DNA from: an uncultured Chlamydiae bacterium
GTDB lineage: Bacteria > Chlamydiota > Chlamydiia > Chlamydiales > SM23-39
Length of the DNA stretch: 64,000 nt
NCBI GenBank assembly: GCA_963730605.1
Contig: CAVSSM010000001.1
Coordinates: forward strand, 576,001-640,000
Direction of reading: 5' to 3'
Made by a program: the position numbers and the translations under genes. Each line of letters begins with the position of its first letter. The first letter of the stretch is position 1. This document shows positions 36,739-60,083 of the stretch, piece after piece. The notes beneath the pieces are model-generated. The model was not told where the DNA came from, ran no database searches, and saw nothing but the letters and a program-made list of their open reading frames with translations.

Positions 36739-36989
36739 TATACTGCTCAAAAAAAGTGAATCTGCCGGCGTCGGACAGCCACTGAATTTGAGACCCCACC
36801 TGCACCCCACCCCAAAGACGATGCGTCTTCGGGAACCCCGGCGCTAAACTTTTCAAGTTTAGCTGCTTCGGCGCCGACTTCGTCTGGCTCAAATTCAGGG
36901 CGCTGCTATGCACAAAAAATGTTCATTCAAGAACCTTTTGTGTGATTTCGCAGTGGCATTTTTCACTCTTTTTGATCGGTCGCAGTATA
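36739..36989. mobile_element. TA-bounded palindromic MITE carrying a nested 30-bp hairpin
   Basis: TATACTGC..TCAAAAAAAGTGAA / TTCACTCTTTTTGA..GCAGTATA; core homologous to 34927-35028. Confidence 0.82.
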
Positions 36990-37064
36990 GTCGCTTTGAA
37001 TCCGCCTCGCCGAAGCGGCTTTTCCTCCAACGGATTCAGGTTAAAACCCAATTCCATATTTAAG

Positions 37065-38892
37065 CCTGACTTTGACACTTTGATCACCTAAAAACACATA
37101 AGAATTTGATTCTCAATATCTATCGAAAAAAATATGTTGTGCCTAAATAATTTTATTTTCATAAATATAATTTTGTAGTACATTGTTGTGCCATGTATGT
37201 AAGACTCAAGTCGTCAAAGAGCTCAAGGCACTCTACTCTCCAGATTGTTGAAGGCATTCGGGAGGGGAAAAAAGTTAGGCAGCGAGTAGTTGCATCTCTC
37301 GGCATTGTCAACGATCAAAAAAACCTGAAGAACCTTTTGAAGTTGGCTGAGAGTTTAATTCGGAAAATCGAAGAGCAGGGGCTCTCTGTCGCTCCTAAAG
37401 TTGAGATCAGCAAGCTCTTTCATACCATGACGGTTTACGATGGGTTCGGGACTGTCGTTAGCAGACTGATGCAGCTGACAGGGTTTTCCAAGATCCTTCG
37501 AGAAGCTCAGGGGAAAAACGAGTTCGATCTCGAAGAGACAATCAAACTGATGATCACCCAACGTCTCGATTTACCCAGCAGTAAACTACGAACATACGAG
37601 CGTCAAGTGGACCATGGTTTCGAGGGGATCGATTTGCATCATCTCTATCGGGCAATGGACACGATCGAGCCATTGAATGGTCAGATTCAAGAACAGGCAT
37701 TTAAATCTGCTTGTTCCATAAATAGTTGCCAAGTTGATTGCTTTTTCTTCGATGTAACAACACTGTATTTCGAGAGTATAACGCAAGATGAACTCAAGGA
37801 TTTTGGCTTTAGCAAAGATCAAAAACATCACAACGTACAGATCGTTTTGGCTCTCGTTGTTGATCAAGAGGGACTGCCACTTGCTTACGATACCTTCAAG
37901 GGCAATCTAGCAGAGACAAAAACACTCATCCCCGTACTCGAGTCGCTGAGGAGTCGTTTCTCTGTTCAGAACGTGACTGTGGTTTGCGATAGAGGGCTGG
38001 CAAGTAGTGCAAACGTCCAAGCTCTCCGAGCTGCTCAGTTTCATTACGTCATTGCTACAAAACTCCGTTCCATCTCGAAAAAACTCAAAATCAATGACCT
38101 ATCAGCTTATGTCCCTCTGCCCAACCAAGACGGCATCCCGGAGGCTGAGCGAGTTTTAGTTCGCACTATGGAGCATCCCCAGTATGAGGATGCCCTACTG
38201 ATTGCAACGTACAGTCCAAGCAGAGCAACAAAGGACAAACAGGACCGAGAACGGCTATTGCAAAAACTGCACAATAAAATAACCGATTCTCCAAACGAAG
38301 CCTCCCTTAAAAAAGTGATCAGTAATGCAGGTTATAAAAAATATACTACCGTTAAAACTGGTTCGTCGATCTCTCTCAATCAAGCAGCGATAGATGCCGA
38401 TGCTGCCTGGGATGGTTTTCATGGGATTGCAGTTTCGAATAGTGCAAAGTTGAATACGACAGAAGCGCTGGGGCGCTACCGAGACCTCTGGCATGTTGAA
38501 GAGACATTTCGCGTGGCTAAATCCACTCTTAAAACCAGACCTATTTTTCATTGGGCACCACACAGAATCCAAGCCCACATCCTCCTCTGTTTTATTACCC
38601 TATTTTTCGAGAGATTTTTGGAGGTTCTCCTACGACAGAAAAGCACGCCGCTTACGCCGGATAGAATCAGGTACTCTCTCTCAAAAGTTCATACGATGTA
38701 TTTCAAAGACTCAACCACAGACAAACAAGGAAAAATGGAATCCAGTCTCCCTGAGGATGCTGAGAATATTTTCGTAGCATTGGGAATTTCAGCAGAACGC
38801 ACAACCGGAATGAACAACGGATGTTGTGCCTAAATTTTCGTTCTTATCTATTTGTAATCTAATGACTTATCCTAACAAGTGTCAAAGTCAGG
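37065..38892 (+). mobile_element. IS1634-family insertion sequence
   Basis: 16-bp perfect TIR CCTGACTTTGACACTT enclosing a 546-aa DDE transposase. Confidence 0.92.
37193..38833 (+). CDS. IS1634-family transposase
   Basis: FFDVTTLYFE, FGFSKD, VVCDRG, WHVEETFR..K and RPIFH..RI.AH motifs. Confidence 0.92.
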   Translation: MYVRLKSSKSSRHSTLQIVEGIREGKKVRQRVVASLGIVNDQKNLKNLLKLAESLIRKIEEQGLSVAPKVEISKLFHTMTVYDGFGTVVSRLMQLTGFSKILREAQGKNEFDLEETIKLMITQRLDLPSSKLRTYERQVDHGFEGIDLHHLYRAMDTIEPLNGQIQEQAFKSACSINSCQVDCFFFDVTTLYFESITQDELKDFGFSKDQKHHNVQIVLALVVDQEGLPLAYDTFKGNLAETKTLIPVLESLRSRFSVQNVTVVCDRGLASSANVQALRAAQFHYVIATKLRSISKKLKINDLSAYVPLPNQDGIPEAERVLVRTMEHPQYEDALLIATYSPSRATKDKQDRERLLQKLHNKITDSPNEASLKKVISNAGYKKYTTVKTGSSISLNQAAIDADAAWDGFHGIAVSNSAKLNTTEALGRYRDLWHVEETFRVAKSTLKTRPIFHWAPHRIQAHILLCFITLFFERFLEVLLRQKSTPLTPDRIRYSLSKVHTMYFKDSTTDKQGKMESSLPEDAENIFVALGISAERTTGMNNGCCA

Positions 38893-39451
38893 ATTAGACC
38901 AAGATACCCTTGCACTGCGCGTCGCAAAAAAGAAAGGTGCATCTTCATGGAAAAAACCGGTTCTATATACTACTCTTACAACAATCGCAGGATTAGCGAC
39001 AGCCTATCTCTTTTATCAATTGGGTCGTTCTCAAGCTAATTCTTGCCCTGTGTGCACATGCCCGGAAGCTTCCAAACTGCAATCAGAACTATCAAAATGC
39101 CAACAAAAAATACCGGACATTTCCAAACTGCAATCAGAACTATTAAAATGGCAACAAAAAATACCGGACATTTCCAACCTGCAATCAGAATTATCAACAT
39201 ACCAACAAAAGTTCAATAAATGCAAAGACGTCCTCACTAGATTCCGAGACACATGCGAAGACGCCCTCAATAGATACGAAGACGCCTTCACTAGATACGA
39301 AGACGCCTTCACTGGATACAAAGACGCCTTCACTGGATACAAAGGCGCCTTCACTGGATACAAAGACATCTTCAATGTATGCATGGCCTCACACACTGAG
39401 ACTATTGCGGACATCAATAGGATTAGGCTTTCATTACCCAGGGTTAAGTAG
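38879..39451 (+). CDS. Membrane-anchored coiled-coil repeat protein, 5' end probably truncated by IS1634
   Basis: TM helix, CPVCTCP, then 17-aa and 7-aa repeats; the only start codon lies in the IS TIR. Confidence 0.6.
   Translation: MSKSGLDQDTLALRVAKKKGASSWKKPVLYTTLTTIAGLATAYLFYQLGRSQANSCPVCTCPEASKLQSELSKCQQKIPDISKLQSELLKWQQKIPDISNLQSELSTYQQKFNKCKDVLTRFRDTCEDALNRYEDAFTRYEDAFTGYKDAFTGYKGAFTGYKDIFNVCMASHTETIADINRIRLSLPRVK
39071..39382 (+). repeat. Coding tandem repeats: ~3 x 51 bp and 6 x 21 bp
   Basis: TCCAA(A/C)CTGCAATCAGAA at 39071, 39122 and 39173; (G/A)AAGACGCCTTCACT(A/G)GATAC-like units from 39257. Confidence 0.9.
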
Positions 39452-39521
39452 CATGAAGCAAACTAATTGTAGACACCCTCTCAGGAGCAACGGAGAGAGC
39501 ATGCCCTTTTGGTCGAAAGTT

Positions 39522-41471
39522 TTATCCGACCGCCAAAATGGCCGAATGGGGGATCAGTTCCAAAGTAGCGGGGAGATCAGGGCCATTCGAGGGGTCTTTC
39601 AAATGATTTTCCCCCCAAGGGCGGTCTGTTCGAGCGGCTTCCTTCCATGAGCCGGGTGGCAAAGTCACCCAATGAGAGTTGAAATCAGCGTTGAAGGCGA
39701 AATAGACCGCTGGCTTTCCTTTAAGCGTACAAGCGACGAACCGGTTTTGCGGACCCCAATCGGCCTGAAAAGGCTGGACCCCGTGCCAATCGACATCCTT
39801 TTGGGTCAGAAAATGGTTTTGGTGAAGCTGGGGGTGCGCTTTCCGGAAGGCAATCACTGCCGCCGTAAAATCGAAGATCTCCCGATGCTTTTCCAATTCG
39901 TCCCAAAGAAACCAATTGGTCTCATTGTCCTGGACGTAGGGGTTATTGTTGCCTCTCCGAGTATGTCCGTATTCATCGCCCATGAGGAGCATGGGGATCC
40001 CTTGAGAAAGAAAAAGCGTAAGAAGGAAGTTGCGGATTTGTCTTGCCCTGAGCTCCACAATTTTTGGATCGTCAGTCGGCCCTTCGTGGCCGCAGTTCCA
40101 GCTCAGGTTTTGGTTTGAGCCGTCTTGTCCATTCTCGCCATTATCATTGTGCTTTTGATTGTAGGAAACAAGATCCCTCAGGCAAAACCCATCGTGGGCG
40201 GTGACGAAATTGATGCTCGAGAGCGGGGAGTGCTTCCGATAGAGAAATTCGCTGCCGGAGATTACATCCGCAAACTTTTCCGAAAAACCGTCGGTGCCCT
40301 TCAGGAAAGAGCGTGTATGGTCGCGGAATCTCCCGTTCCAATCGGACCAGGGGCCAAAATCGGGAAAAGCCCCTACTTGATAAAGGCCGGCAGCGTCCCA
40401 AGCTTCCGCAATCAGCTTCCGTTTACAAAGGAGCGGATCGGAGGCGATTTTTTGAAGCAGCGGAGGATTTTTCATGACTTGTCCATCGGTCCCCCGCGTC
40501 AAGATAGAAGCGAGGTCGAACCTAAATCCGTCGACTTGCATCTCGTCCGCCCAGAAACGCAAAGAGGAGAGGATCATTTCCTGCACGGCTGGATGATTCG
40601 CGTTCACGGTATTTTTGCAGCCCGTAAAATCTCTATAGTTTCCCAATTCGTCGACCATGTAGTAAACCGCGTTGTCAATCCCTCGGAAGTTGAACTTGTA
40701 GTCCTTGTCTCCCGCTTCTCCGGTATGATTGTAGACGACGTCGAGAATGACCTCGATCTTGTTGCGGTGCAGTTCGCGGACAAGAGTTTTGAATTCATGA
40801 ACCGGGTCTTTTTCCGCAGCATAGCGGCGCATCGGGGAAAAATAGAAAAGGGGATCGTAGCCCCAATAATTCACCTTGTCTTCGTGCTTGGGATTGCACC
40901 GGGTTTCATCGAATTCGAACATCGGCAATAATTCCACCGCATTGACGCCGAGAGCTAAGAGATAGGGGATTTTTTCAATCATCCCGAGATAGGTGCCGGG
41001 ATTCTTCGACCCGCTAGAGCCATGAAAGGTAAACCCTCGGACGTGCATCTCATAAATGACGAGATCCGATAGAGGGATCGAAGGAAGGTCTATTTTTTGC
41101 CAATCGAAGGGAGAAGCGGCCTTGCAAAGAGACCAGACCCCGCCGGTTCCCTCTCCCCATTTTAGGGAAGTTGCGGGATATCTCGAAAAAGGGTCCGCCA
41201 GCCAAATATCGGGATCGAAAAGGTTGCCGGGGTTTGGCGGGCCCTCGACGCGAAAGGCATATTCCGATCTTGCCGCCGCTCCACTCACGGCAGCATGCCA
41301 GACGTCTCCTGTCCGCTCTAGAGGGATTTCCTGTACCTTGCCGGCCGATCTTAACCCTAAGGCCACTTTTGAAGCATGGCTTGAGTAAATGGCGAAATTT
41401 GCAAGGCCTCCTTGGATCGAAAGACCCAACGGCTCTGGATTCCCGGGATAAACTAAAATTTTTTCTCGCAT
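39522..41471 (-). CDS. glgX: Glycogen debranching enzyme (isoamylase)
   Basis: IYEMHVRGFT, NYWGY, LDVVYNHT, DGFRFDLAS, AEAWD, TAHDGF and QGIPM motifs. Confidence 0.95.
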   Translation of the reverse strand: MREKILVYPGNPEPLGLSIQGGLANFAIYSSHASKVALGLRSAGKVQEIPLERTGDVWHAAVSGAAARSEYAFRVEGPPNPGNLFDPDIWLADPFSRYPATSLKWGEGTGGVWSLCKAASPFDWQKIDLPSIPLSDLVIYEMHVRGFTFHGSSGSKNPGTYLGMIEKIPYLLALGVNAVELLPMFEFDETRCNPKHEDKVNYWGYDPLFYFSPMRRYAAEKDPVHEFKTLVRELHRNKIEVILDVVYNHTGEAGDKDYKFNFRGIDNAVYYMVDELGNYRDFTGCKNTVNANHPAVQEMILSSLRFWADEMQVDGFRFDLASILTRGTDGQVMKNPPLLQKIASDPLLCKRKLIAEAWDAAGLYQVGAFPDFGPWSDWNGRFRDHTRSFLKGTDGFSEKFADVISGSEFLYRKHSPLSSINFVTAHDGFCLRDLVSYNQKHNDNGENGQDGSNQNLSWNCGHEGPTDDPKIVELRARQIRNFLLTLFLSQGIPMLLMGDEYGHTRRGNNNPYVQDNETNWFLWDELEKHREIFDFTAAVIAFRKAHPQLHQNHFLTQKDVDWHGVQPFQADWGPQNRFVACTLKGKPAVYFAFNADFNSHWVTLPPGSWKEAARTDRPWGENHLKDPSNGPDLPATLELIPHSAILAVG

Positions 41472-41657
41472 ATCCACTCAATAGAAATTTGCATTGAATT
41501 TTATTTTCATTTCAACTAAAATTGTACTAGGACAAAATTTAGTGGAATGATTTTTCGACTTTTTCCTTGCTTTGCAAGGGCGTCCGGATTATACAAGAAG
41601 CTTGCGTTTTACGAGTTGCTAGAGTTAAGATGCTAAAAACTTTTTAGGAGGGAACCA

Positions 41658-42173
41658 ATGTCTTATGAGAACGCCAAGGCCAACTTGAAGGAGTTCGGCA
41701 AAGAGCTCAATTTAGAAGGTCTTGATTTTGACGAGAATTTTACCTGTATTCTCGGGATCGACAACACTTTTTCGCTGCACATTACTTATGAGCGTAATTC
41801 GGACCGTCTCTATCTCTACTCGCCCATTCTCGACGGCCTTCCCAAAGATGATAGAACCAAACTGAAGCTGTATGAGAGGCTGCTCGAAGGCTCCATGCTC
41901 GGCGGCCAAATGGCTGGCGGCGGGGTAGGCATCGCGCTCAAGGAAGAGCTGATCCTGATGCATTGCGTCATCGACATGGGCCTTGGCGTCGATGCGGCAG
42001 CTCTCCGACGTTTTGCCCCTCTTTTTGTGGAAACGGTTGAAAAATGGCGCGAGATCGTAACGAAAATCATGAATGGCGAAGAGCCTGGCCCATTCCAATT
42101 CCCAGCGCCCCCGCAAGAGCAGCAAGCCTTTGGCGCGGGAGCCAAACCTGGCGAGCGGTACATCAAGATCTAA
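41658..42173 (+). CDS. slc1: T3S class I chaperone Slc1 (CT043-like)
   Basis: SDRLYLYSPILDGLP..LYERLLEGSMLGGQMAGGGVG; next to glgX as in Chlamydia. Confidence 0.9.
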   Translation: MSYENAKANLKEFGKELNLEGLDFDENFTCILGIDNTFSLHITYERNSDRLYLYSPILDGLPKDDRTKLKLYERLLEGSMLGGQMAGGGVGIALKEELILMHCVIDMGLGVDAAALRRFAPLFVETVEKWREIVTKIMNGEEPGPFQFPAPPQEQQAFGAGAKPGERYIKI

Positions 42174-42188
42174 TCGAGAGAACTCGTG

Positions 42189-42224
42189 AAAAGAAACGCA
42201 CTAAAAGTGCGTTTTCTTTTTTTT
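42189..42224. terminator. Bidirectional intrinsic terminator
   Basis: AAACGCACT-AAA-AGTGCGTTT stem flanked by A and T tracts, between convergent genes. Confidence 0.8.
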
Positions 42225-42230
42225 AGTAAA

Positions 42231-43490
42231 TTAAATTTTGAGGCTGGCCACAGCCTCGCAAAGTTCTGGTTTTTGTTTTTCAATCCCTTCTTGGATCTGC
42301 CGGACGCTCGCCATGACCGTCGAGTGATCGCGGCTGAAAATTTCCCCGATTTTTTGAAAGGGGAGCTTTAGTTTTTCACGGCAGATGTACATGGCGATTT
42401 GCCTGGGAACGGCAGCTTCCCTGGTTTGCGATTTGCCGAGAATATCGGCAGCTTGGATTTCGTAGCGCGCGGCGAGGTGTTTGACAATTTTTTCGGGGGT
42501 CCATGCTTGGAGAGCTTCCTTTTCCAAAAGGTCTTTCAGAAGGAGCGAGGCGTGGGTGGGTCCGATTTGGGAGACGTCTTTCGTCCGGATCGCAAGGGCT
42601 TGCAAGGCCATGAGTGGAGAGGTGGGGAATTTTTCCACGAGAAAGGAGATGAGAGAGGAGCCAAGCGTTAGTTTCCAAAGCTTTGCTTTTTTTTCCAAGA
42701 TGGGAGCCCAATCTTCTTTTTCGATGCCGACCGAGATCCCCCATTCAAAACGGCTGACAAGCCTGGGCTCGATTTCGACCAGTTTGCTGGGAGAGACCTC
42801 CGAGGCGAGGAAAATCGGGGATCCGCGCGTATGCAGCTCGTTGAAAGTGTGGAAAAATTCTTCCTGGGTGGCCGATTTCCTAGAGAACAAGTGGATATCG
42901 TCGACAAGGAGGGCATCGGCAGAGCGGTAAGAGGCTCTGACCTCTTGCATAGTCCCCTTCCGGATCGCTTGTACGACATGTTCGGTAAAAGTGGAGGCAT
43001 TGACATAGAAGGCGTTTATCTTTTTTTCCCTGAGAAGGGCAGTGGCGGCCATGAGTAGATGGGTTTTTCCCGAGCCTGCCATTCCATAGAGCAGCACCGG
43101 GTTGAAAGGGCATTTGGCCGCATCTGTGATGAGTTTATAGGCGATCTCGTTCGCTTTGCGCCGTATCAAAAAATGCTCCAGGGTCATTTCTGGATCGAGA
43201 GGGTCGGGAGCGACTTTAAAAAGAGTCGAAACGTCTTTGCAATTGGCTTTTTTTTCCGCATAAGGGGTTCTAAGGTTGAGCAAGATCCGGATAGGCCGCC
43301 CGTTGTTATTCACTAGCTTTTGGCATTGGGGGCGCACGTGTTCTTCAAACCAACTGACCTGGAAGGAATTTTCCGCTTCCAAATAGATATTTGCCGCATC
43401 GAAACGGAGGAGCTTGAGGGGGCGGACCCACTTTTCGACCGTTTTCTTTCCCAGCTCATTTTCGAGACGAGAGAGAATCAGATCCCACAT
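42231..43490 (-). CDS. dnaA: Chromosomal replication initiator DnaA (yidC-linked chlamydial copy)
   Basis: FNP..LYG..GSGKTHLL, TQEEFFHTFN, RLVSRFEWG and RQIAMY..RDHSTV motifs. Confidence 0.92.
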   Translation of the reverse strand: MWDLILSRLENELGKKTVEKWVRPLKLLRFDAANIYLEAENSFQVSWFEEHVRPQCQKLVNNNGRPIRILLNLRTPYAEKKANCKDVSTLFKVAPDPLDPEMTLEHFLIRRKANEIAYKLITDAAKCPFNPVLLYGMAGSGKTHLLMAATALLREKKINAFYVNASTFTEHVVQAIRKGTMQEVRASYRSADALLVDDIHLFSRKSATQEEFFHTFNELHTRGSPIFLASEVSPSKLVEIEPRLVSRFEWGISVGIEKEDWAPILEKKAKLWKLTLGSSLISFLVEKFPTSPLMALQALAIRTKDVSQIGPTHASLLLKDLLEKEALQAWTPEKIVKHLAARYEIQAADILGKSQTREAAVPRQIAMYICREKLKLPFQKIGEIFSRDHSTVMASVRQIQEGIEKQKPELCEAVASLKI

Positions 43491-43496
43491 TTCTTC

Positions 43497-45886
43497 TTAC
43501 TTCGCAATGACGGCAGTTTGTGATTTTGTCCTCTTCGTCATCCACCACTGTTGGGCGATCCCCAAAAGGGTTGAGAACATGAAATAGAGGTTCAATCCCG
43601 ATGGGAAGTTGTAGAACATGACGGTAAAGAGGATCGACATCATGTTCCCCATCATTTTTTGCTGTTTTTGCGAATCGGAGAGTTGGCTTGGGTCTTTGGG
43701 CGCTTTAGATGTGAGGCGCTGTTGGAAATACATCGTTAGGCCCATCAAAATCGGCAATAGATGGAATTCGTTTCCGATGAACCAAAGGGGCTCTCCCCAT
43801 GAAAAAAGAACATCGGGCGCGGCCAAGTCATCGATCCAGCCTGGGATAAAGGGGGCTCCGCGCAAAGGAAAGCTCGATTTCAATAAATAGAACATCCCGA
43901 TCAAAAAGGGCATTTGCAAAAGGACCGGCAAACAACCCATGAAGGGGTTGATTTTCGATTCTTTGTAGAGGTTCATCACTTCGAGCTGCGCCTTGCGGGG
44001 ATCTTTCTTGTACTTGTCTTGGAGCGCCTTTACTTTCGGCGCGATCTCCTGCATCTTGACTGAAGAACGGATCGACCAGGCATTGAGCGGATACATCATG
44101 GCCCTAAGGGCAATCGTCAAGAGGATGATCGAAAAGGCCCAAGAGTGGGTCGCCGCATAAAAAATCCGCATGAGGAGAAAGAGGAATTTCGCAAAAGGCT
44201 GTGAAATGAAGGAGAACCAACCCTGGATGCTCTGCGCTGAGGCATAGTCGGGATTGTAGTTTCGGGTGGGATCTTCATAGATTCCATCGAGCTCTTTCAA
44301 GAGGGCGTCGTCATAGGGACCGGCGAAAATACGTATTGGGAAATTCACGCCGCTTTTCAAAGGGAGATAGGTCGCGTAGCCCGGGTAGTTTTCCGGCGGA
44401 TAAAGCCGGTAGGCAGCGTCGATCAAGGAAAGGCGGGTCAGGATTTTAGCCCCCTCGAATTGTACGGCCTTATAGCCCCCCCTTTTTCTTTGGTCGGGTC
44501 GAGGATGATTCCAAGGTATCCATTGCAGTTGCTGATCCAGTTGGCAGCGGCGTAGCCAACTCTTGGACCTTTTTTGGGAAGGTCGATCGTTTCGACGTCA
44601 TTGCCCCCATGTACGGTCACTTGGTAGCGCAAAAGCGGGCTATAAGCCCCTCCCACGAGTTCCACGTCGGGAACTCCCGAGCCGATCATGAGACCCCGTG
44701 CATCTCCTTCGATTTGGAGATCGAGCTGAAGGCAATAGGGGCCGTTTCGTTCTTGAGGAATAAAGAACGTCTTTGTGATCTTCCTTTGTCCCGTCTGAGC
44801 TTGGAATTGGATCAGGTTGGGCTCAAAACGGGTGACCCGGTATAAAAGACGGGAAATCTCGGGATCGTCGCCGATGATATTCAGCGCATAAGCCTCGGAG
44901 GGAACCGAACTTTTTTCGGTGCTGTCCGCATTCAGGATCGGCCGGCGCAAAAGGGGATAGTATCCCCCGAGAGTCCCTTGAGTCTGGAGCGCCGAACTAG
45001 ATGGGATCCGGTAGGGATGAAGAGGGAACCTGGCATTTTGCGGCGACTCAGCGAGGATTTCTCTATCGATGCCGATCTCTCTGATGTAGCTTTTGGAATC
45101 TTTTGACAGTTTGAGAGGGAGGTTGATCTCCGCCAAGCTGCCGCCTTTGGTGGAAAAGACGAGCTGCTGATAGGTGTTTTCCAATACGTAAAATTCTTCA
45201 TTTCCCGTTAAGGGGGAAAGTTCGATCGGCCTCCCTTGTTCCACGAGATTCTGCAGCCACGGGAATTCGCGAAGCTCTTTGATCCGTTTCGCTCCTGGCT
45301 CGTAAATGCCGACGGGAAGATAGACGCTCCCGACACGCATGAAGGCGATAGCCTGCTCCTCGAGATATTGAAAGGGGACGGAAAGCTCTCCCTTTTTCTC
45401 TTGGCAGAAGACGATTCGGGAGGGGTCTTGATTTAAAGGGACGAGCTGGAGGTCGACCGTGCCTTCTTGGGGAATGGAAGGAACCGTGAAGGGGGTTTTG
45501 TTTTTGCTGTACAAGGCGGGCAAGCCTGCCGAGGCGGAAGCGGTCAGTTGCAGAGATTCAAATGATTTCCCTTGAGAGACGTACGTTTTTTCAGGCAAGG
45601 GCTTTTGCCAACCATTCACCAAATAATGTCCACCCAATACAGCGGCCTCGCCTAGTTTCTGGGTGAGAGCTGTGTCGGCAAAGAGGGGTGCAAGAGGGAT
45701 TTCCCCGGGCTTGGCAGTGCGGGCTACGACTTCCGCAGCCCATTCCTTATCGCCGAGAGCCTGCTGCTCCTTAACCTTTTTTTGATGGGCGAGCCTCTCT
45801 TTATCCTGGGACATGCTGAACCAGGTATGGACGCCGAAAAAAGCAAGGCTTACGCACAAAAGAAAGAGAAGAGATCGTTTATCCAT
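43497..45886 (-). CDS. yidC: Membrane protein insertase YidC, one frameshift at a C7 run near 44476-44482
   Basis: N-terminal MDKRS + TM helix, VLENTYQQLVFSTKGG, and C-terminal INPFMGCLP, WIDDL..PD and PSGLNLY. Confidence 0.92.
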
Positions 45887-45988
45887 GGAAGGGCTCAGGG
45901 CTCTCTGGTTTGTCCTGAATTAGCATATCAGAGATAGCGCTAGCAGAGCAACCTTATTAAAAAAATATGAAAAATGATGATATCACTT

Positions 45989-46642
45989 TAGACCGCTGGG
46001 GCTTCGCGCCTACTGCTTTCCTTGAAAAAGAGCGCACCCCCGCTCTTTTTCAAGTGTCCGCAGCCCCGCGGGGCTGACTACGGCTGTGGAGATCGTTCGC
46101 GCCTTTGGCGCTCAACTACCTCCATTCCCCTAAGTCGATGCGACTTTGGGGGCCCCTTGGGGCGCGCGTCCTCGGGCTCGTGCGTACATTCGTACTGCCA
46201 CTTCGCCCTGCGGTGCGATTCTCCTTTGCCGCGCGCAGCCATCGGCTGCAACGGCGCGCTCCCACCCCAAAATGTCCCATTTTGGGGCCCCATTCCGCGT
46301 CGCGTTGCAGTGCTTAGCTTGATCACAAATTTATTTATATTCAATCCTCTCCAGTCTCACGTTCTGAATGCGTCTCCCCACCTCCAAAAGGTCCGGGAAT
46401 GGCCTTGATCTTATGAGCCGAAGCATCTCCTGGGTTGCTAATGAGCGGATAATTTTCCTGATCGGGATGATCAGGTTGTGAATAGAAAAACCCAATATCA
46501 CTGTTTACAAAGAGAGTAGCAGTTAGTGGACTGTTTGCAATTCAGGAGTCCTTAGCTGGGAAATTCTTCTGGCCTTCTCTTTAAGCGGTCATTCAAGCAA
46601 CTTTTTCAAGGAAAGCAGTGGGCGCGAAGCCCCAGCGGTCTA
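45989..46642. mobile_element. 654-bp non-coding element with 42-bp terminal inverted repeats
   Basis: TAGACCGCTGGGGCTTCGCGCC(T/C)ACTGCTTTCCTTGAAAAAG at both ends (41/42 match); no transposase. Confidence 0.8.
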
Positions 46643-46675
46643 TGTAGTGAAATTACATGCTAATTTAATTTGCTT

Positions 46676-48748: not shown

Positions 48749-48858
48749 GAAACCATCGCAATGAAGGAGCGGATTATAGATAAGCCCTTTTTTTTTGCCC
48801 AGAGGCGGTTCTATCTTATTGATGTTGAGAGATTAATGGAAATAAAAATTCCAGTTAA

Positions 48859-50322
48859 TTAAATATTTTTGCTCACAATTTCAGCGATTGCTTTGCGGTT
48901 GATTTTGTGGCCATTTTTGGGCAATTCATCATTGATGAAGAGAAAGCGGATAGGGATTTTGAACTTCGGAAGATGCTCGAGAAGGGCGCTTTTCAGGTAG
49001 GCGGGGTCTTTAGCTCGGGTGGACGCCACGAGGACCGCGAGCGGACGCTTGCCGAATTCAGGGTCGTCAACGGGGACCACCGCAGCTTCGAAAACATCCG
49101 GCAGTAAGAGGAGCTGCTGTTCGATCTCTTCGGGCTGGATATTTTCTCCCCCCGAGATGAACTGCCAGTCAATTCTACCCAAAACGGTCAGCCCGTCGTC
49201 TGACATCCGTCCAAGGTCCCCGGTCGCAAACCAGCTATCTTGATCAAACGGCTTTGAGATTCGCCCCTCTTCCCAGTAGCCCTCAAAGAGGCACTTTCCC
49301 CGCACGAGGATCTCGCCGATCTTCCCCTTCCCCAAAGACGATGCGTCTTTGGGGGCCCCTGTGGGGGAAAGGCGAAGTTCCCGTTCGGGAAGAGGAAAGC
49401 CCAAGGGGACCCCGAAGTCGCATCGACTTTGGGGTTGGGGAAAAAAAGATTTAGCGCCTACAGTGACAAGCGATCCCATTTCAGTCAGACCGTAGGACAG
49501 ATAGCAGGGAAGATGTTCAGGAAAAGAAGAGATGGGGGCGCCGCCGATCAGCAGGCACCGAAGATTTTTGTAGACGGGCGATTTCCGGTAAAGCTGGGCC
49601 GGCACGGCTGAAATGTGGGTGATTTCGGGGTCTTTCTCATCGAGGACAACAGTGGCAAGCGCTAAAGTAGAGCGTATAAGGATGCCGATCCCGCCTACAT
49701 GGTAAAGGGGGAGGTTGAGAAGCCAACGGTCCCCGATCCGTAACCCAAGCCATTTGGCAAGAGGCGCGGCGTTCGAGAGGAGATTAGAGAGCGATAGAAC
49801 GGCAATTTTTGGGAGAGCGGTCGAGCCCGAGGTGAAGAGGAGCGCCGCCGGGAAGGAAAGGGGAGGGTAGCGGTTCATGCGGAGGCGCGGGGAAAGGGGG
49901 GAAAAAGGGAGAAAAGAAAGGGGCCCCCGAAGTCGCATCGACTTTGGGGAAAAAAGGGGCCCCCAATGACGCATCGACTTTGGGGAAAAAAGGGGCCCCC
50001 AATGACGCATCGACTTTGGGGAAAAAGAGTCGATGAAGCAACGGGCGTCGAGGCGAGCGAGCAGGGTTTCGATTTGGGAAGCGGGAAGACGAAGCGATAG
50101 TGGGCAGATCGACGCTCCGATGCGCCAAGCGGCAAAAAATAGGGCTGCCGTTTCGCAAGTTGGGCGGTGCAAAAAAGCGATCCGGTCGCCCGGGCCGATG
50201 CCCGAGGCCTCGAGCGCCCGCGCCATCTTGTCCGCAAGCTCGTCAAGCTCTTGAAAGGTCGTCTTGTCAAAGGCGGGCAGTCGGGGAGCGAGTCTCGCGG
50301 CTTCTTTTAACGGACAGGGCAT
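48859..50322 (-). CDS. menE: O-succinylbenzoate-CoA ligase with in-frame hairpin insertions
   Basis: FTSGSTALPK, LPLYHVGG, SYGLTE, TGDLG, GRID..FISGGENI.PEEIE and FG.RP motifs. Confidence 0.92.
   Translation of the reverse strand: MPCPLKEAARLAPRLPAFDKTTFQELDELADKMARALEASGIGPGDRIAFLHRPTCETAALFFAAWRIGASICPLSLRLPASQIETLLARLDARCFIDSFSPKSMRHWGPLFSPKSMRHWGPLFSPKSMRLRGPLSFLPFSPLSPRLRMNRYPPLSFPAALLFTSGSTALPKIAVLSLSNLLSNAAPLAKWLGLRIGDRWLLNLPLYHVGGIGILIRSTLALATVVLDEKDPEITHISAVPAQLYRKSPVYKNLRCLLIGGAPISSFPEHLPCYLSYGLTEMGSLVTVGAKSFFPQPQSRCDFGVPLGFPLPERELRLSPTGAPKDASSLGKGKIGEILVRGKCLFEGYWEEGRISKPFDQDSWFATGDLGRMSDDGLTVLGRIDWQFISGGENIQPEEIEQQLLLLPDVFEAAVVPVDDPEFGKRPLAVLVASTRAKDPAYLKSALLEHLPKFKIPIRFLFINDELPKNGHKINRKAIAEIVSKNI
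49330..49434. repeat. Two oppositely oriented 30-bp hairpin elements in menE (49330-49359, 49405-49434)
   Basis: CCCCAAAGACG-ATG-CGTCTTTGGGG-GCCCC and a reverse-oriented variant. Confidence 0.9.
49920..50021 (-). repeat. Three tandem 30-bp hairpin elements (36-bp period) in menE
   Basis: Encodes FSPKSMRHWGPL twice, then FSPKSMRLRGPL. Confidence 0.92.
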
Positions 50323-50323
50323 A

Positions 50324-51166
50324 CTAAACAGTTAGTAATTTCGACATGTCGATAGGGGAGGTGCTTCCTGCCCAAGTGAGAAAGCCGTCTTCGGCCTTTA
50401 AGGGAGGTACGAGAAGGTCTTCAGGGAAGAACCGAAATGTATCGAGTCCTGCCGGAGGCGCTCCGTTCTCGTAGCATCTTGCGATTTGGAGAAGGCCTAG
50501 GCTGCTTTCCAAGGCCGAAGAGAGGACGGTTGGCACAGGCAGGGAGGGAAAAAAACCAACGATACTTGGCTTGATGACCGCGGCTTTGAGTGTGGGGATT
50601 TTGTGGCAGGGCAATTTCAAGACCGGTTCATCGACCGCGATCGGAAATCCGGAAAGCTTGGAAAAACGGACAAGTTCGGGAAAAGATTGGACCGGATCTT
50701 CCAGGTATTCGAAATCTTGGGGGGAAAAATGGCGGGTAAACGAGAGGGCCTGGTCGAGGGTCCAAGAGCTGTTGCAGTCGAGCCGGAGCCGATATTTTCC
50801 GAGAAATTTTTTCACGTGGGCGACCGCTTCCTCGATGGACAACCCTCTGAGTTTCAACTTGAGAGTAGAAAATCCAGGGCGGGGGTCATTGACGAGCGCA
50901 AGGGGAATTTTCAGGGGCTTTCCCGAAAAAGGCTTTGATGCGGCTTTGATGCCGAAGCGAACCGAAGGAAGGCAAGGCTTGGCTGAAGCGAGATCGGGAA
51001 AAAACTCTAATATTTCACTTTTCGCCTCCTCTAAGGTTTCAGAGCTCAATCCAGGCAAAGGCGCGATTTCACCCCACCCGTCATTCCACTGGAGAATCAG
51101 CCCTTTACGGATCGGATATTTGGGCCAGGAGGTTTTTAGTTCATAGGAATAGAGTTTGGCTACCAA
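50324..51166 (-). CDS. menC: O-succinylbenzoate synthase
   Basis: GWGEIAPLPG.S.E, LKLK, LRLDCN..W, YLEDP, IAVDE, IKPS and SSALES motifs. Confidence 0.9.
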   Translation of the reverse strand: MVAKLYSYELKTSWPKYPIRKGLILQWNDGWGEIAPLPGLSSETLEEAKSEILEFFPDLASAKPCLPSVRFGIKAASKPFSGKPLKIPLALVNDPRPGFSTLKLKLRGLSIEEAVAHVKKFLGKYRLRLDCNSSWTLDQALSFTRHFSPQDFEYLEDPVQSFPELVRFSKLSGFPIAVDEPVLKLPCHKIPTLKAAVIKPSIVGFFPSLPVPTVLSSALESSLGLLQIARCYENGAPPAGLDTFRFFPEDLLVPPLKAEDGFLTWAGSTSPIDMSKLLTV

Positions 51167-52053
51167 AGTACACCCGCAATGAACACCAAAGTGTAGGCTA
51201 AAAGGAGGAGCGATGTTTCTTCGAGCGCCTCATGAGAGTTGAAGATCTTTTTGAGGGGAGCGAAAAGAATCATGAGGGATGCGGCGGTAATTGTAATGGG
51301 AAATCCTAGAGCGGCAAGCGCAATCGGCACGAGAAAGGCGGCAAAGATAAAAGCAGTATATAAGCCCTTACCAAATTTCGCACCGAACCGGACGACGAGC
51401 GTTTTTTTATTTGCGATCCGGTCGCTTCTCTCGTCGCGAAGGTTATTGGCCATGAGGATCGCAGCCGAGAGAAATGCAGGAGCGAGGCTTGCGATGAATA
51501 AGCGGAAGCCGCATTCGCCTGTTTGGAGAAAATAGGCGCCCATAACGGCGACGGGTCCGTAAAAGATGAGGACTAGAATCTCGCCGAGGCCAAGATACCC
51601 AAGAGGTTTCGGCCCTCCTGTGTAGAGAATGCCGCACAGGACGCAAAGCGCGGCGATTCCAAAACTCCAAAGCCCACTCGCGAGCATGAGCGGAAGGGCT
51701 AGGCATAAGGCCAATGCGAAAGTGAAGAGAGCTGCCTTGAGCATCGCGCTGGGGGCTATCCATCCAACGCTCACCGCCCGTTTTGGGCCGATCCGCTCTG
51801 AAGTGTCTGCGCCATTTACGAAGTCGAAATAATCGTTCGCATAGTTGGTCCCGATTTGGATGAAAAGGGAAAAGAAGAGCGTTAAAAGAAAGGTGTCCCA
51901 TGAGATGGGGGAATGCCTCGCTGCGAGAGCGCCGCCGATCAGGACGGGACAGATCCCAGCGCTCCAAGTTTTCGGGCGGGAAGCTAAAAAGAGGGCCTTA
52001 AGGGCGCTTGGGGAAGCGGGCGAAATCGGGCTTTCGTTTTTCGTTGAATGCAT
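51160..52053 (-). CDS. menA: 1,4-dihydroxy-2-naphthoate prenyltransferase
   Basis: [24 protein letters not shown] and NNLRD..D..K.TL motifs; start uncertain. Confidence 0.92.
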
Positions 52054-52816
52054 TGCGTCCTTCTTGTCCTTCCTCCGTCATGTAGAATAGCATCGTCGCA
52101 TTACCAGCCAGCTCTTGCAGCCCCGCTTGTCCGTCACAGTCGGCGTTGAGCCCTGCTTTGAGGCAGCGGATCGCGATCGGCGAATGCTGGAGGATCTCGC
52201 GGCACCATTGGACGGTCGTCTCCTCGAGTTTTTCATAGGGGACGATGCAATTGACGAGTCCCATTTCGAGAGCTTGCTGAGCATTGTACTGGCGGCAAAG
52301 AAACCAAATCTCACGCGCCTTTTTTTGGCCGACGATCCTTGCCAAAAAGGAAGTGCCATAGCCGCCATCGAACGAGCCGACTTTGGGGCCGGTCTGGCCG
52401 AAAATGGCGCTGTCGGCAGCAATGCTGAGGTCGCATAGCACATGCAGCACATGCCCCCCCCCGACCGCAAAGCCTGCGATCATCGCGACGATCGGTTTTG
52501 GGCAAGAACGCATTTGCCTCTGGAAATCGAGGACGTTCAGGCGATGGACGCCTTGCCCGTCGGCATATCCGGCGTCCCCACGGATCTTTTGGTCGCCGCC
52601 AGAGCAAAAAGCCTCTTTCCCTTCCCCAGTCAAAATGACGACCCCGATGGTCGGGTCGTTCCGCGCATCGTTCAAGGCATGGCTCATCTCTTCGACGGTC
52701 ATTGGGCGAAAGGCGTTTCGCACCTGAGGGCGGTTGATGGTGATCTTCGCAATTCCCTCGTGTTTGTGGTATTTGATATCGGTGTAAACGCCGCTCGATT
52801 TCCAGGGAAATGTCAT
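51998..52816 (-). CDS. menB: 1,4-dihydroxy-2-naphthoyl-CoA synthase
   Basis: [26 protein letters not shown] and [10 protein letters not shown] motifs. Confidence 0.97.
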
Positions 52817-54577: not shown

Positions 54578-54634
54578 CATAAGAGACTGTCTGCGATCCT
54601 ACCATAAGTTGCTCAGTCTAGCTACCATAATACG

Positions 54635-54802
54635 CAGGGCGAGCGCATCAAATGTTGAATTCGTAGTATGTGCGTACACCCCTACGTTGCCTACCTGATC
54701 AGAGAACGTCTCTGATGAATCGTCCGAACCGGTGTTGCTACTCATTTACCCGTAGGAGGGTACAGGGTCGACTGGATTTTGCATTTTGATGCGCTCGCCC
54801 TG
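54635..54802. mobile_element. ISAs1-derived MITE
   Basis: 18-bp perfect TIR CAGGGCGAGCGCATCAAA, identical to the ISAs1 end at 24335-24352. Confidence 0.88.
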
Positions 54803-54951
54803 CATAAGCTGTAATTAATTCGTAATCTTTACTATGTCGTCGGAACTTCCCCAGCCATGCAAACATTTTCTAAGCGGCTACTGGTCTGCTTTATGAGTTG
54901 AACGATTTGGTCGCATTGATTGTAAGTAAAAAAATGACAATATAAAAAATT

Positions 54952-56781: not shown

Positions 56782-57727
56782 ACGAAGATCCCGTCATAGA
56801 GGCGGCTTTTTTGATTGAGCTCTTCCCATTCCTCTTCTGGTTCGGACCCTTCGACAATGCCGGTTCCAGCATAGAGATAAGCGCGGTTGCCCCTCACAAA
56901 GCAAGAGCGGATTCCGACGATCCATTCGGAAGTTTCGGGGGTGCTCCAACCAAGAGCGCCGCCGTAGAGGCCCCGCTCGAAGGGCTCCAATGCCCGGATC
57001 AGATGGAACGCCTCTTCAGTGGGAGTGCCGCAAAGAGCTGGCGTCGGGTGGATGCGGGAGAGAATTTCTTCATCGGTAAGATTGTTTTTCAAGGTTGCCC
57101 TGCAGCGAGCATAAAGATGTTGGACATTCTGCGTTTTGTGAAGAGCAATGGGAGAAAATGTAAGAGGTCCTTGGCAAATGGGATGGAGAGCGGTTTGCAA
57201 AAATGTTTGCACAGGAGAGAGTTCCCTAAGGTCCTTCGCGCTCTTCATGAGCTCTTGTCCCAGCCTCTCGTCTTCTTCGGGAGAGCTTCCGCGAGGGCGG
57301 GTTCCAGCCATTGCTTCGCTATAAAGATTCTGCCGTTCGCGGAAAAAAGGCGCTCCGGGCTGGCGCCGAAAAAGGAGATGTCACCCTCGCTGAAACAAAA
57401 GACGTGCGCTCCTTGTGCTTTTCTTTGAAGAGCGGCGGTGAGGGCAAAAGGGTCAGGGCATGACTCCAGCTCCAAAATCTGGCAGCGGGCAAGGACGATT
57501 TTTTCCATCTTCTTTGCGAGGGCCTTTTTCACGGCATGGATCCACTCCGCTTTTTCAGGAACGAAGGTCCGTTTTACTACCTCCATTGAGACGGGGGGTG
57601 GGAGATAGTCCACTCTTGACGACTCTTCTTGAAAAGGAGAGCGCGCATTGGGAAAGAAAGGACGGCATTGGAATTTCGCATCTCGCGGCGGGCCTAGCCC
57701 ATCGCGGTCTGACCAATAGACTCTCAA
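56778..57727 (-). CDS. menF: Isochorismate synthase, one frameshift at an A6 run near 57343-57348
   Basis: KIVLAR and FFGASPERL, then AGT, VQHL, HPTPALCG.P and AG.GIV.GS.P..EW.E in the next frame. Confidence 0.88.
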
Positions 57728-58422
57728 CGCTTCTCCCCTAAATATAAAGTGACGACGCCAAGCGCCATTGGAATTTGCCGAGACGTGAGGGAGGCGCTTT
57801 TCATTAAAGATAAGAAGGCGCCGCCGCTTGGGAAAGTTTCGATCGTCTCGTTCAAATAGCGGTAGGCTGCTCTATTTTTGGAAAAAAATCCGCCAACGTG
57901 AGGAAGGATGCGGCGCAAATAGAAGAGATGGAGCGTTTTCAAGGGCTTTGGCGGCAAGGAAAATTCCAAGATAAGACACCTTCCGCCGGGTTTCAGGACA
58001 CGGGCAATTTCTTTGAGCGCGGCACTCGGATCGGACACGTTGCGGATCCCGAAAGAAAACGTCGCCGCATCGAAAGAGCTATCCCTAAAGGGGAGCCGCA
58101 AAGCGTCGGCGCGCTGAAATTTGACTTTTGTTTTGTAAGGTTTCGATCCGATTTTGGCCTGGGCAATTTCGAGCATGAAAGAGGCAAGGTCGATGCCGAC
58201 CGCGGACCGGATGTGGGCGTCGCTCTCCATGCAGGCGATGAGCTGATCCCCTGTCCCTGTCGCTATGTCGAGGAGATCCAGATTTTTTCGCTCTGGCAGG
58301 TGCAGGGCGGCACGCCTTCTCCAACCGCGGTCCATCCCAAAGGATAGGATCGAGTTGATCCGGTCATAGGTCGCTGAGATCGCATCGAACATTTTCCAGA
58401 CGTTTTCCCGGGAGTGGGTCAT
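57724..58422 (-). CDS. menG: Demethylmenaquinone methyltransferase MenG/UbiE
   Basis: MFD.I...YD..N..LSFG.D..WR, LDIATGTGD, FGIRNV, RVLKPGG and AY.YL motifs. Confidence 0.92.
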   Translation of the reverse strand: MTHSRENVWKMFDAISATYDRINSILSFGMDRGWRRRAALHLPERKNLDLLDIATGTGDQLIACMESDAHIRSAVGIDLASFMLEIAQAKIGSKPYKTKVKFQRADALRLPFRDSSFDAATFSFGIRNVSDPSAALKEIARVLKPGGRCLILEFSLPPKPLKTLHLFYLRRILPHVGGFFSKNRAAYRYLNETIETFPSGGAFLSLMKSASLTSRQIPMALGVVTLYLGEKR

Positions 58423-60083
58423 GCGGTTGCCTCTTGCTCGGCGGTTCTAGTGTTCGCAGCAAGGAGACCCGCCGCAAGGAAAAATGGGAGCTTCCCTTGC
58501 TGAAAGAGGAGCGGGTAAAAATCGCAGCCCCCGATGAAAAGAAAGGCGATAAAAATAGCGGTCAAAGAGGCAGTGAGGGGGGTAAGGGGTGTGTGGCTCG
58601 CCGCCCAAAGCAAGGAGAAAATGAAGAGGAGAAACGCGGAAAGAGATAGAAGACCCGTTTCTCCAGCCAAGTAGAGATAGATATTATGAGTGGCGCTCGA
58701 CGCTGGGAATTCCTTGCCCCCGAAAGGCTTTTGGGGGAGATAATCAAGGCCGCGGATCGAGAGCTGGTCAAACCCGGCGCCAAAAAGGGGAAAGTCTTTG
58801 ATGACTTGGAGCGCCAAGTTTTGATAGGAGATCCGAAGAGCGTCCGACCCTTGCGCAACCCCATTGTAATTCACGATCCCGCCGCGATCCTTGATTTGGG
58901 TCTGAAGGACAAGAAAGCTAAAAAGGATGGAGAAGGTTATTGTAAGGGCAGGAAGCCGGATCGACTTCCAGAGGAAACGTAAACCATTTTGCCTCAAATG
59001 GAGACCGAACCAGGCCAGGGTGCCGAGCATCAAACTAAAAAGCGCTGACCGGGAAAACGTTAGACTCATCGCGAAGAATTGGATGGGAATCATCAGTGCC
59101 GCTGCAAGACGCCACTTTGGGCGGGAAAAAAGCGAATAAGCCGCAAGGATTGACATGCTTAAATACCCGCCCAGGACGTTTGGGTGCGGGAAGGTGCCTG
59201 AAGGTCGGATCACTTCGCGCGGCTGCACGCCTAAGTTGTTATCGAACAGCCAAATGCGTCCCGAATCGACACCAAATACAGGAAAGCTGGACGGCTCGCT
59301 GAAGAGGCGGAGGCCAAGAGGCCCTTGAATTGCGTATTGGGCGATCGCGAGGCCCGATTGGATGAGCGCGGTTCCTATAAGGCATTGGAGCAAAAGAAAA
59401 GAGAGTTTGGATTTGTCCTCTACTCTCCCGTTGGCAAGGAAACAAAAAAGGATAAAGGGGGTGGCAAGTTGCAATAGGCGGATGTAGGGGATAGGGTAAC
59501 TGGCAAAAGGAGAAAGGGCGATCGAAATCAAAGCGCAAAGAAAAACGGTCCAAAGAAAAACGGCGCCTCTAGGTATGAAGAATCGTCTCAAAGGGATGCG
59601 GAACGCAAAAAGGGCAATGAAGAGGAGCAAAAGAGCGATGACATCGGAAGGGTAGAAATAGATCTTCTTATCGAAGAAGCTCGGCAAAACTAGATTTCCC
59701 GGGATGAGTTTCAGAGAAAAAAAACGGAAGAGCTTGTCGTATTTGTGCTCGAAGGGAATAGCAAAAGCGATAACGCAGAGGAGAAAAAGGGATATACTGC
59801 GCGCGGTTGGCTTCTTAAAATTTGGACGGGCTGCGACTTCGCCAAATCGATCTGCTCCGCGAGAAAAACGGTCCATCCGAGGACCGTTTTTCTCGATTCC
59901 GCAGTCCTCGGAAATATTGCCTTCGGATATTTCCTTCGCCCCGTCCCCAAAAACGATGCGTTGTTTGGGGGCCCCTGGGGAGGTCGGTCGGACCGCTTCG
60001 CTTCGATTTTGCTTTGTCTCGCTTGCGTTCAAATTTAAAAATCCTTCCCGCGCGCAGTATAGACGCCGCCAAAACATAAACAC
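58419..60083 (-). CDS. O-antigen ligase (Wzy_C)-family membrane protein with an 89-aa MITE-derived insert
   Basis: Multiple TM helices with R..GTF.HPN..G, TFSRS, P.FGAG and HNIYL...ETG; the stop overlaps the menG ATG. Confidence 0.85.
   Translation of the reverse strand: MFMFWRRLYCAREGFLNLNASETKQNRSEAVRPTSPGAPKQRIVFGDGAKEISEGNISEDCGIEKNGPRMDRFSRGADRFGEVAARPNFKKPTARSISLFLLCVIAFAIPFEHKYDKLFRFFSLKLIPGNLVLPSFFDKKIYFYPSDVIALLLLFIALFAFRIPLRRFFIPRGAVFLWTVFLCALISIALSPFASYPIPYIRLLQLATPFILFCFLANGRVEDKSKLSFLLLQCLIGTALIQSGLAIAQYAIQGPLGLRLFSEPSSFPVFGVDSGRIWLFDNNLGVQPREVIRPSGTFPHPNVLGGYLSMSILAAYSLFSRPKWRLAAALMIPIQFFAMSLTFSRSALFSLMLGTLAWFGLHLRQNGLRFLWKSIRLPALTITFSILFSFLVLQTQIKDRGGIVNYNGVAQGSDALRISYQNLALQVIKDFPLFGAGFDQLSIRGLDYLPQKPFGGKEFPASSATHNIYLYLAGETGLLSLSAFLLFIFSLLWAASHTPLTPLTASLTAIFIAFLFIGGCDFYPLLFQQGKLPFFLAAGLLAANTRTAEQEATA
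59793..60061. mobile_element. TA-bounded palindromic MITE inserted in frame at codon 8, with a nested hairpin (59945-59975)
   Basis: Perfect 14-bp TIR TATACTGCGCGCGG, extending imperfectly to ~36 bp; core shared with the menD element. Confidence 0.9.

Follow-up and report, generated by a model that had tools for sequence, protein, structure and literature searches.

The window analysed here is a stretch of 64,000 nucleotides from an uncultured Chlamydiae bacterium (assembly GCA_963730605.1, contig CAVSSM010000001.1, positions 576,001 to 640,000 of the forward strand), and it carries a hairpin of about 30 nucleotides at nine sites. Five of these copies lie within menE, the gene for o-succinylbenzoate-CoA ligase, and the others are nested in larger repeats: the copies at 36810 and 59945 in TA-bounded inverted-repeat elements, and those at 46127 and 46265 in a repeat of about 340 bp. 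An earlier reading of the sequence alone (the original prediction) had listed the nine sites, noted the nesting, and proposed a very small mobile unit that colonises proteins and other elements. All nine sites are present, among them 59945 with a copy of 31 nt and 46265-46291 with a variant of 27 nt, and the proposal agrees with what we found genome-wide: 164 copies, with clean empty sites in orthologues. The hairpin is a real, recently mobile micro-palindrome restricted to one chlamydial family.

Copies of the hairpin in the genome and the family

The source assembly (G000; 2.2 Mb, 83% complete) was compared with 102 other genomes of the same chlamydial family and with 351 genomes of other families. 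G000 belongs to an environmental chlamydia; named homologues of its MenE carry the labels Chlamydiales or Chlamydiia. Copies in G000 were counted with a weight matrix search, which found 164 and none in hexamer shuffles; an earlier gapped regular expression had given only 64. Within the window, the 25-nt core lies at 36810, 46127 and 49330 on the plus strand and at 49410, 49925, 49961 and 49997 on the minus strand, where it belongs to the 30-mers from 49405, 49920, 49956 and 49992. The expected number of core matches from shuffles is 0.00. Features of the window are collected in Table 1, in which G003 is the close relative used for comparison.

Table 1. Hairpin copies, host repeats and the menE gene in the window (MITE, a miniature transposable element with inverted repeats)
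Feature	Position	Strand	Remark
Hairpin cassette type A (CCCA + 30-mer 36810-36839 + GG)	36806..36841	+	net +36 vs empty MITE copies
TA-bounded MITE (TATAC...GTATA), host of the 36810 copy	36739..36989	.	of one modular family with the MITEs whose left end is that of the 14-copy IS630
Second, different hairpin cassette in the 36739-36989 MITE	near 36905-36955		
Empty copy of the 36739-36989 MITE family	34897..35070	.	empty site near 34967
Hairpin 30-mer	46127..46156	+	with flanks net +46 vs G003 host-repeat copy; non-coding
27-nt variant of the hairpin (stem shorter, TCC loop, spacer base absent)	46265..46291	+	also in G003 host copy, with changed stem pairs
Host repeat of about 340 bp of the 46127 and 46265 copies	45985..46320	.	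boundaries approximate; also in G003, there without the 46127 copy
Sister hairpin cassette in the 45985-46320 repeat	near 46017-46066		net +46 vs G003
menE, o-succinylbenzoate-CoA ligase, 487 aa, frame intact	48859..50322	-	three independent insertion sites
menE site 3, GAPKDASSLGKGKI, 14 aa	49318..49359	+ (antisense to gene)	net +42; G003 empty
menE site 2 (PQSRCDFG)	49405..49434	-	common to G003
menE site 1, tandem array of three with period 36 (FSPKSMR...)	49920..50021	-	G003: shorter, different array
31-nt hairpin copy	59945..59975	+	within the 59793-60061 element
TA-bounded inverted-repeat element, host of the 59945 copy	59793..60061	.	in frame about 5 codons into an O-antigen-ligase-like gene

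Carriers make up 25 of the 102 other family genomes and 13 of 53 genera, and the distribution is patchy even inside genera. Outside the family, only one of the 351 genomes gave a match, a single one with two mismatches. A scan of a genome collection found at least 95 stretches with the hairpin, and the 80 listed among these belong to 16 assemblies, whose labels are chlamydial, 'Verrucomicrobia' or uncultured. A protein match in G000 was found for 41 of 46 metagenome loci, and viral contigs held no exact match to the hairpin. In one metagenomic source (L372, L375, L377, L380, L395, L402, L416) G/C-rich stems resembling terminators repeatedly hold the hairpin in their loop, between ACCA...GGT flanks.

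The hairpin consists of an 11-bp stem and a 3-nt ATG loop, followed by RCCCC, and the consensus of one strand reads YYYYW-CCCC-stem-ATG-stem-GGGG-RCCCC-KK. Across 93 distinct contexts, positions -5 to -2 of the left flank are 83-89% pyrimidine, and the two bases to the right of the hairpin are mainly G or T. Two flank types dominate: CCCA...GG (type A) goes with MITEs, and TTTT...TT with genes and tandem arrays. Such arrays are found in menE (three copies), msrB (ten), contig C7 (nine) and murC-ddl (two). More distant variants, with CCCC...GGGG-(N)-CCCC ends and other stems or loops, lie in G000 at C1:208153, C2:348537, C2:235961, C4:9659 and C11:23661, all below or at the matrix threshold. 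Rfam gave five sub-threshold matches in window positions 34000-61000, none of them over a hairpin copy.

The compensatory A-T/T-A swap reported for the stem recurs genome-wide: pair 9:17 is AT in 133 of the 164 copies and TA in 17, and covariation is also seen at pairs 8:18 (GC 95, AT 55) and 10:16 (CG 129, TA 26). Copies with an inverted loop are present as well, so arm-to-arm templating, with no selection, may be the source of part of this covariation. Mismatches among the 128 distinct variants are wobble-compatible chiefly on the reverse strand, GGGG-Y-hairpin (90 vs 22 cells), and at stem pairs 1-4 there are 33 C-A mismatches vs 7 T-G. An outer stem co-varying past the 30-mer was rejected; it showed only a class effect of C..G vs T..T, and no further signal. 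The original prediction had also pointed to the lack of stop codons. The consensus is indeed stop-free in all six frames, but a stop interrupts at least one frame in 41 of the 164 30-mers, two menE copies among them, and chance alone leaves 8-24% of shuffled or GC-matched 36-mers without one. Stop-freedom is weak evidence, and a designed or selected feature is not supported.

Insertion into genes

Sorted by their flanks, 90 of the G000 copies lie inside MITEs and 74 elsewhere. Within the latter group, 55 are inside called genes, in all six frames and both orientations. Genes were called in G000 with a simple in-house caller, and several N-terminal calls with a MITE in the gene may not be translated. 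The hairpin-bearing genes include menE, NAD kinase, inositol monophosphatase, lolC/E, murC-ddl, priA, plsX, tamB, msrB, ackA, dnaX and a treS-like gene. As with the Rickettsia palindromic elements (RPEs), the insertions are in frame in unrelated, intact genes and missing from orthologues. The lolC/E gene with its hairpin, together with many other genes, occurs twice in inverted order at G000 C1:703000-738000 near a contig end, which is either a segmental duplication or an assembly artefact.

In menE, all three insertion sites are gaps relative to the orthologues. The inserts are placed by a structure model in low-confidence loops (residues 102-142, 290-304 and 326-330), and the catalytic motifs are intact, with the adenylation motifs still in register with those of a solved MenE. 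The MenE proteins of other chlamydiae (P0007; P0018/L028) have unrelated inserts of about 62 and about 43 aa, and the P0007 insert is at the window's site 3.

The size of the insertions was measured against G003, of which 1.29 of about 1.7 Mb was examined and 0.91 Mb aligned, at a mean identity of 89.5%. Outside the MITE family this comparison yielded 23 filled/empty pairs, sized by an automatic single-gap fit and by reading individual alignments (shared and complex sites). The count excludes C2:91435 (dnaX), C2:235777/235843 and every site without an orthologue in the examined part of G003. Eighteen of the gains are coding, with 24, 27, 33 (three sites), 36 (four), 39 (two), 42 (two), 48, 72, 78 (two) and 132 bases, each divisible by three. 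Non-coding gains number five (26, 38, 43, 46 and 51 bases), and four of them are not multiples of three. The gains are variable while the coding ones are all multiples of three, and we conclude that there is no fixed unit length and that selection filters the frame. The net gain per unit ranges from 24 to 51 bases. The empty and filled pair that the original prediction had described (about 34967 vs 36800) is real, with a net gain of 36, and the tandem period in menE is also 36, but the fixed 36-bp unit suggested by this match has to be given up, +36 being one of many sizes.

No constant target duplication was found across the 23 pairs. The CCCC that the empty target already has is seen at both ends of the insert at three or more sites (+26, +27 and +24). 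On the hairpin strand, pyrimidines make up 65% of the bases of empty targets (218 of 336, at 21 sites, one anchor being misplaced). Stand-alone inserts have neither a TA nor a terminal repeat. About eleven more sites are common to G000 and G003; at some of them the two genomes differ in subtype, as in plsX, or in loop orientation, as in ackA. Contigs of four sequencing runs, placed on window positions 34000-52500, gave short pieces with joints mostly from other host-repeat copies, and no usable same-species polymorphism.

Carriage by IS630-type MITEs

More than half of the copies (90 of 164) became numerous through carriage by IS630-type MITEs and not through separate insertions. These MITEs are TA-bounded and modular, and hold zero to several hairpins at three fixed sites (+35 or +45, +36, and +42); empty copies read CTGCA-T-CGCT where filled ones read CTGCA-C-(36 bases)-CGCT. 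One MITE subfamily starts with the same 16 bases as an IS630 of 14 near-identical copies, and the left end of this IS630 is common to 37 ends in G000. The host elements are thus TA-bounded, with terminal repeats shared with an autonomous IS630, and their presence or absence is polymorphic between G000 and G003. They resemble the IS630-derived, TA-flanked MITEs of the Correia, RUP or ERIC type, elements linked to IS630. The hairpin itself differs from these as a mere passenger: classing it as a MITE was rejected, as it has no terminal repeats of that kind and no constant target duplication. Chimeric MITEs joined at the hairpin are also observed.

The MITEs carry further cassettes that are present or absent like the main hairpin. 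These sister cassettes are 45-55 bp long. Their flanks are conserved (CTGCT...TCCGCAG), and their stem-loops are of at least six kinds genome-wide, each with an A-tract in one arm, a T-tract in the other and a tail that ends in CC. Besides those in Table 1, the window has one at 59855-59905, inside the element that enters the O-antigen-ligase-like gene (58419-60083, minus strand). G003 has no element at that place, and has a related one just upstream of the start codon.

Whole MITEs are translated in frame in an 8-member protein family (G000 C11:78975-82148 and seven paralogues) and in a CT351-family outer-membrane protein (C1:669918-672275). In seven of the eight members of the former, the hairpin is a gain of 15 aa. 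An IS1634-family element with five genome copies lies at 37065-38900 of the window, directly after the filled MITE, and another copy of it interrupts a hairpin-bearing MITE at C2:292939.

Local clustering and a probable donor copy

Of the 46 non-MITE sites, 15 have another within 700 bp, where 1.3 are expected and 10 was the maximum in 2000 random sets. In the tuf-trnW-secE-nusG-rplK region (L347:2421-3444, which is G000 C4:66421-67444), each of four successive spacers holds one hairpin in the same orientation; gene names other than tRNA-Trp were read by eye from the sequence here. The same region of G003 holds seven hairpins. As to a bias between replication strands, 30 of the 46 sites are on the C-rich strand, although the sites are not independent.

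One recent event can be followed to its probable source. The copy at C2:203911 is absent from G003. An older copy stands 147 bp away in inverted orientation, and the two are identical over the 30-mer, 11 bases to the left and three to the right. The outer bases of this match are already present in the empty allele. As read from the sequence, the junctions have the pattern of a microhomology-primed template switch. One gene on contig C11 has two new inverted copies, 200 bp apart and different by one base.

Candidate mobilisers

We searched the carriers for enzymes that might move the hairpin. These genomes are 60-97% complete, and the absence of a gene from them is not proof. The original prediction had named as one candidate an enzyme of the HUH or RAYT type (RAYTs are tyrosine transposases associated with REPs, which in turn are extragenic palindromic elements of repetitive kind), and this is not supported. 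The only Y1 sequence in G000 is a C-terminal fragment of an IS605 tnpA before a decayed tnpB-like frame; 7 of 24 other carriers have a Y1 match, as do many non-carriers, and none was found in G006, the hairpin-richest relative (91% complete). No hairpin lies at any of the Y1 loci scanned (L011, L040-L051 and L322-L331).

A small GIY-YIG gene was not found in G000, G003, G006, G007, G008 or G011, in each of which the single match was a frame of 392-714 aa, and four small GIY-YIG loci from other families had no hairpin. Reverse transcriptase is encoded by three identical genes in G000 and by one in the hairpin-free G002, and was not found in the carriers G003, G006 and G008. Ku was found in 5 of 25 other carriers vs 8 of 77 non-carriers, and not in G000. 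The 14-copy IS630 was found in only 2 of 25 other carriers, a count to be read with the frequent failure of multi-copy insertion sequences to assemble. Among the proteins at 126 hairpin loci, no non-housekeeping neighbour gene recurs.

Loss of SbcD as a permissive factor was rejected: G000 has SbcD, and none of the 102 relatives do. The G000 gene (C2:135476-136237) scores well above the family cut-off and was probably gained recently, so that the hairpin-richest genome is alone in having this hairpin nuclease subunit.

How new copies may arise

The explanation we prefer, with about an even chance of being right, is that the hairpin is a non-coding, non-autonomous repeat that spreads by MITE carriage and by microhomology-templated copying by host enzymes. 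By the first route the hairpin, seated at three or more fixed sites in TA-flanked MITEs, could be moved with them by the 14-copy IS630, whose ends match. By the second, the host's replication or repair machinery would make new insertions. Where a site is rich in pyrimidines, a strand that is nascent or broken would pair over a few bases with the pyrimidine-rich ends of a copy already present, in many cases one close by, copy across the hairpin and then return. The new copy would carry a variable stretch of donor flank and no fixed target duplication, and slippage could then build tandem arrays. Insertions that shift the frame of a gene would be purged, while survivors would lengthen surface loops by 8-17 residues per unit, in any open frame. 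No benefit to the host would be required.

Local clustering and the match of C2:203911 to its inverted neighbour through both junctions favour microhomology-templated copying, and the loop inversions and the chimeric MITEs joined at the hairpin argue for strand switching there. The varied insert sizes with their frame filter, the target CCCC at both insert ends and the pyrimidine bias of targets and left flanks count on the same side, and the 14 IS630 copies with their widely shared left end speak for the MITE route. That no candidate enzyme tracks the repeat is counted for copying by host enzymes. Templated copying, the second candidate of the original prediction, is also the best fit to the junctions.

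Several observations weigh against this explanation. Only one event has a clear local donor and microhomology at both junctions, the closest sequence match is local for 4 of the 46 sites, and for most sites a donor cannot be named. Junctions have drifted at about 90% identity. Clustering could reflect open, highly transcribed DNA, as in the tuf-trnW-secE-nusG-rplK spacers. Plain repair also leaves unexplained the near-identity of the 30-mer, with its invariant RCCCC tail, over 13 genera, and the one-strand wobble bias (C-A vs T-G). Lastly, mobile genes are often missing from assemblies as incomplete as G000.

The main rival is possible, though we hold it less probable than host-enzyme copying: a dedicated single-strand hairpin nuclease or transposase acting in trans (REP/RAYT-like or Ssn-like, with a new GGGG tag), whose gene was lost, unassembled or of an unrecognised family. 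The strand that folds would be GGGG-Y-hairpin, and cleavage at CCCC would give a minimal insert of 26 nt, the size of one insert at a CCCC target. The reverse strand has the anatomy of a REP as given in the available part of 10.1101/279083, a tetranucleotide one base 5' of a GC-rich 11-bp stem with a 3-nt loop, and the wobble asymmetry favours the same strand. Such a nuclease would better account for the family-wide conservation of core and tail, the strand asymmetry and the MITE sister cassettes, which have a common CC-ending 3' tail on very different stems. It is opposed by the searches above, with Y1 in a minority of carriers, lacking in G006 and never beside a hairpin at the scanned loci, no small GIY-YIG gene in six carriers, and no recurring neighbour, and by the imprecision of most junctions.

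Two further alternatives seem improbable to us. The hairpin might be cut from transcripts and written back by a reverse transcriptase, with the 3' purine run of the reverse strand as a tail. This would agree with a variable A/G-rich run at one end and a sharper other end, with the crowding of copies in a highly expressed operon, and with the three identical reverse-transcriptase genes of G000, but the distribution of this gene among carriers and the hairpin-free G002 does not follow the repeat, target duplications are lacking, copies in genes have both orientations, and the pyrimidine run is partly native to the targets. It is equally doubtful that all copies are by-products of IS630 and its MITEs, either as passengers or as filler or footprints of repair after MITE excision. 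The 90 copies in MITE context and the recent movement of MITEs, seen in their presence and absence relative to G003, speak for such an origin; it is weakened by the stand-alone inserts, which lack TA and terminal repeats, by the many unrelated hosts of the hairpin, including other repeats and terminator-like stems, and by the scarcity of the IS630 in other carriers.

Relation to known repeats

The hairpin works like several known repeats but fails the tests that define REPs. It is a 20-40 bp GC-rich stem-loop in many copies, as GTAG-type REPs are. Their rule, in the available part of 10.1101/279083, is a GT[AG]G tetranucleotide 0-2 nt 5' of the stem, and at that position the 164 copies have GGGG-Y on one strand and YYYW on the opposite one. 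No RAYT or TnpA-REP gene is flanked by the hairpin, and the usual layout of extragenic inverted dimers (REPIN/BIME) does not fit a repeat with most of its non-MITE copies in genes and with singletons and direct arrays dominating. CGTC-type REPs, with RPE-4, RPE-6 and SRM, have a terminal CGTC, an 8-9 bp stem starting with AT and a CCA tail, and lack a dedicated enzyme, according to the portion of PMC3733652 consulted; the hairpin has CGTC only inside the stem beside the loop, and its ends are CCCC. None of the three findings that the original prediction named as its refutation turned up: copies outside the window are many, orthologues have clean empty sites, and the repeat matches neither the GTAG nor the CGTC class.

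Closest in behaviour are RPE-1 to RPE-10 of Rickettsia and the intragenic GTAG or CGTC REPs (R. conorii, Opitutus terrae), which likewise insert a palindrome into unrelated housekeeping genes of an intracellular bacterium while keeping the frame, at times two per gene and clustered, with RPE-4, RPE-6 and the REPs measuring 20-40 bp (PMC3733652 and PMC10969869). The hairpin differs in having no GTAG/GTGG or CGTC end tag and no flanking RAYT, in occurring mostly as singletons and direct tandem arrays and not mainly as head-to-head dimers, in its variable insert length and in its nesting in MITEs. A search of 23 proteins against NCBIfam at E<=1e-8 found no RPE domain, a weak test for an insert of 12 residues.

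Small dispersed repeats (SDR) of Nostocaceae were reportedly described by Elhai et al. in 2008. From the summaries in PMC2884548 and PMC5861425 and from general background, they resemble the hairpin in being about 20-30 bp long, lineage-restricted, apparently mobile and tandem, with no known mobiliser. Their sequence and phylum are unrelated, and SDR5 has a defined target (HIP1) where the hairpin has only a pyrimidine bias and sometimes CCCC. The GC clusters of yeast mitochondria, as far as covered by the accessible text of PMC8811140, are also short GC-rich palindromes with in-frame inserts (in var1) and no encoded enzyme; they are hotspots of recombination and gene conversion, and merge and shuffle into new clusters. 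They differ as organelle elements with AG/TAG target duplications.

In the Ssn system, a gene of about 95 aa for a GIY-YIG nuclease is flanked by the repeat, and the abundant small NTS/SRM hairpins of host-associated bacteria, alike in this to ours, are recognised as single-stranded DNA (PMC11893778, in part). The system is not supported here: by eye, the hairpin misfits the SRM pattern in that source (HGTCWY... start), and the small nuclease gene was not found in the six carriers searched. Intrastrand triplex repeats (BoxC/PIT) were rejected too; these need three arms with at least 6 triads in a class I-IV order, according to the part of PMC4666352 available, and by eye the 30-mer has the arm order Y-R-Y, with only 4 triads for the type A left flank and none for type B. 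A literature search, outside which most subscription papers lie, found no description of this chlamydial repeat.

Significance

Coding palindromes in an intracellular bacterium are already known as a behaviour, and how tiny palindromes enter genes without a transposase of their own has been a question ever since RPEs, CGTC REPs and cyanobacterial SDRs became known. The material here is 23 filled/empty pairs of two close genomes and a donor-recipient pair caught in the act, with a natural control in that only multiples of three survive in genes. Together these make the question of spread testable with a 40-base oligonucleotide. The hairpin is also a case of a mobile element nested inside mobile elements, and in a dozen core enzymes it marks loops where 8-44 added residues are tolerated. 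It may, more speculatively, be a selfish element that measures about 26-37 bases and needs no enzyme of its own: the hairpin and its pyrimidine-rich ends would attract strand switching by the host, so that it is copied locally, travels in MITEs and goes on adding peptide loops to essential proteins. Or else it may be the substrate of an undescribed GGGG-tag hairpin nuclease that moves it and its sister cassettes. If true, either reading would be a route of propagation not shown so far for a bacterial repeat.

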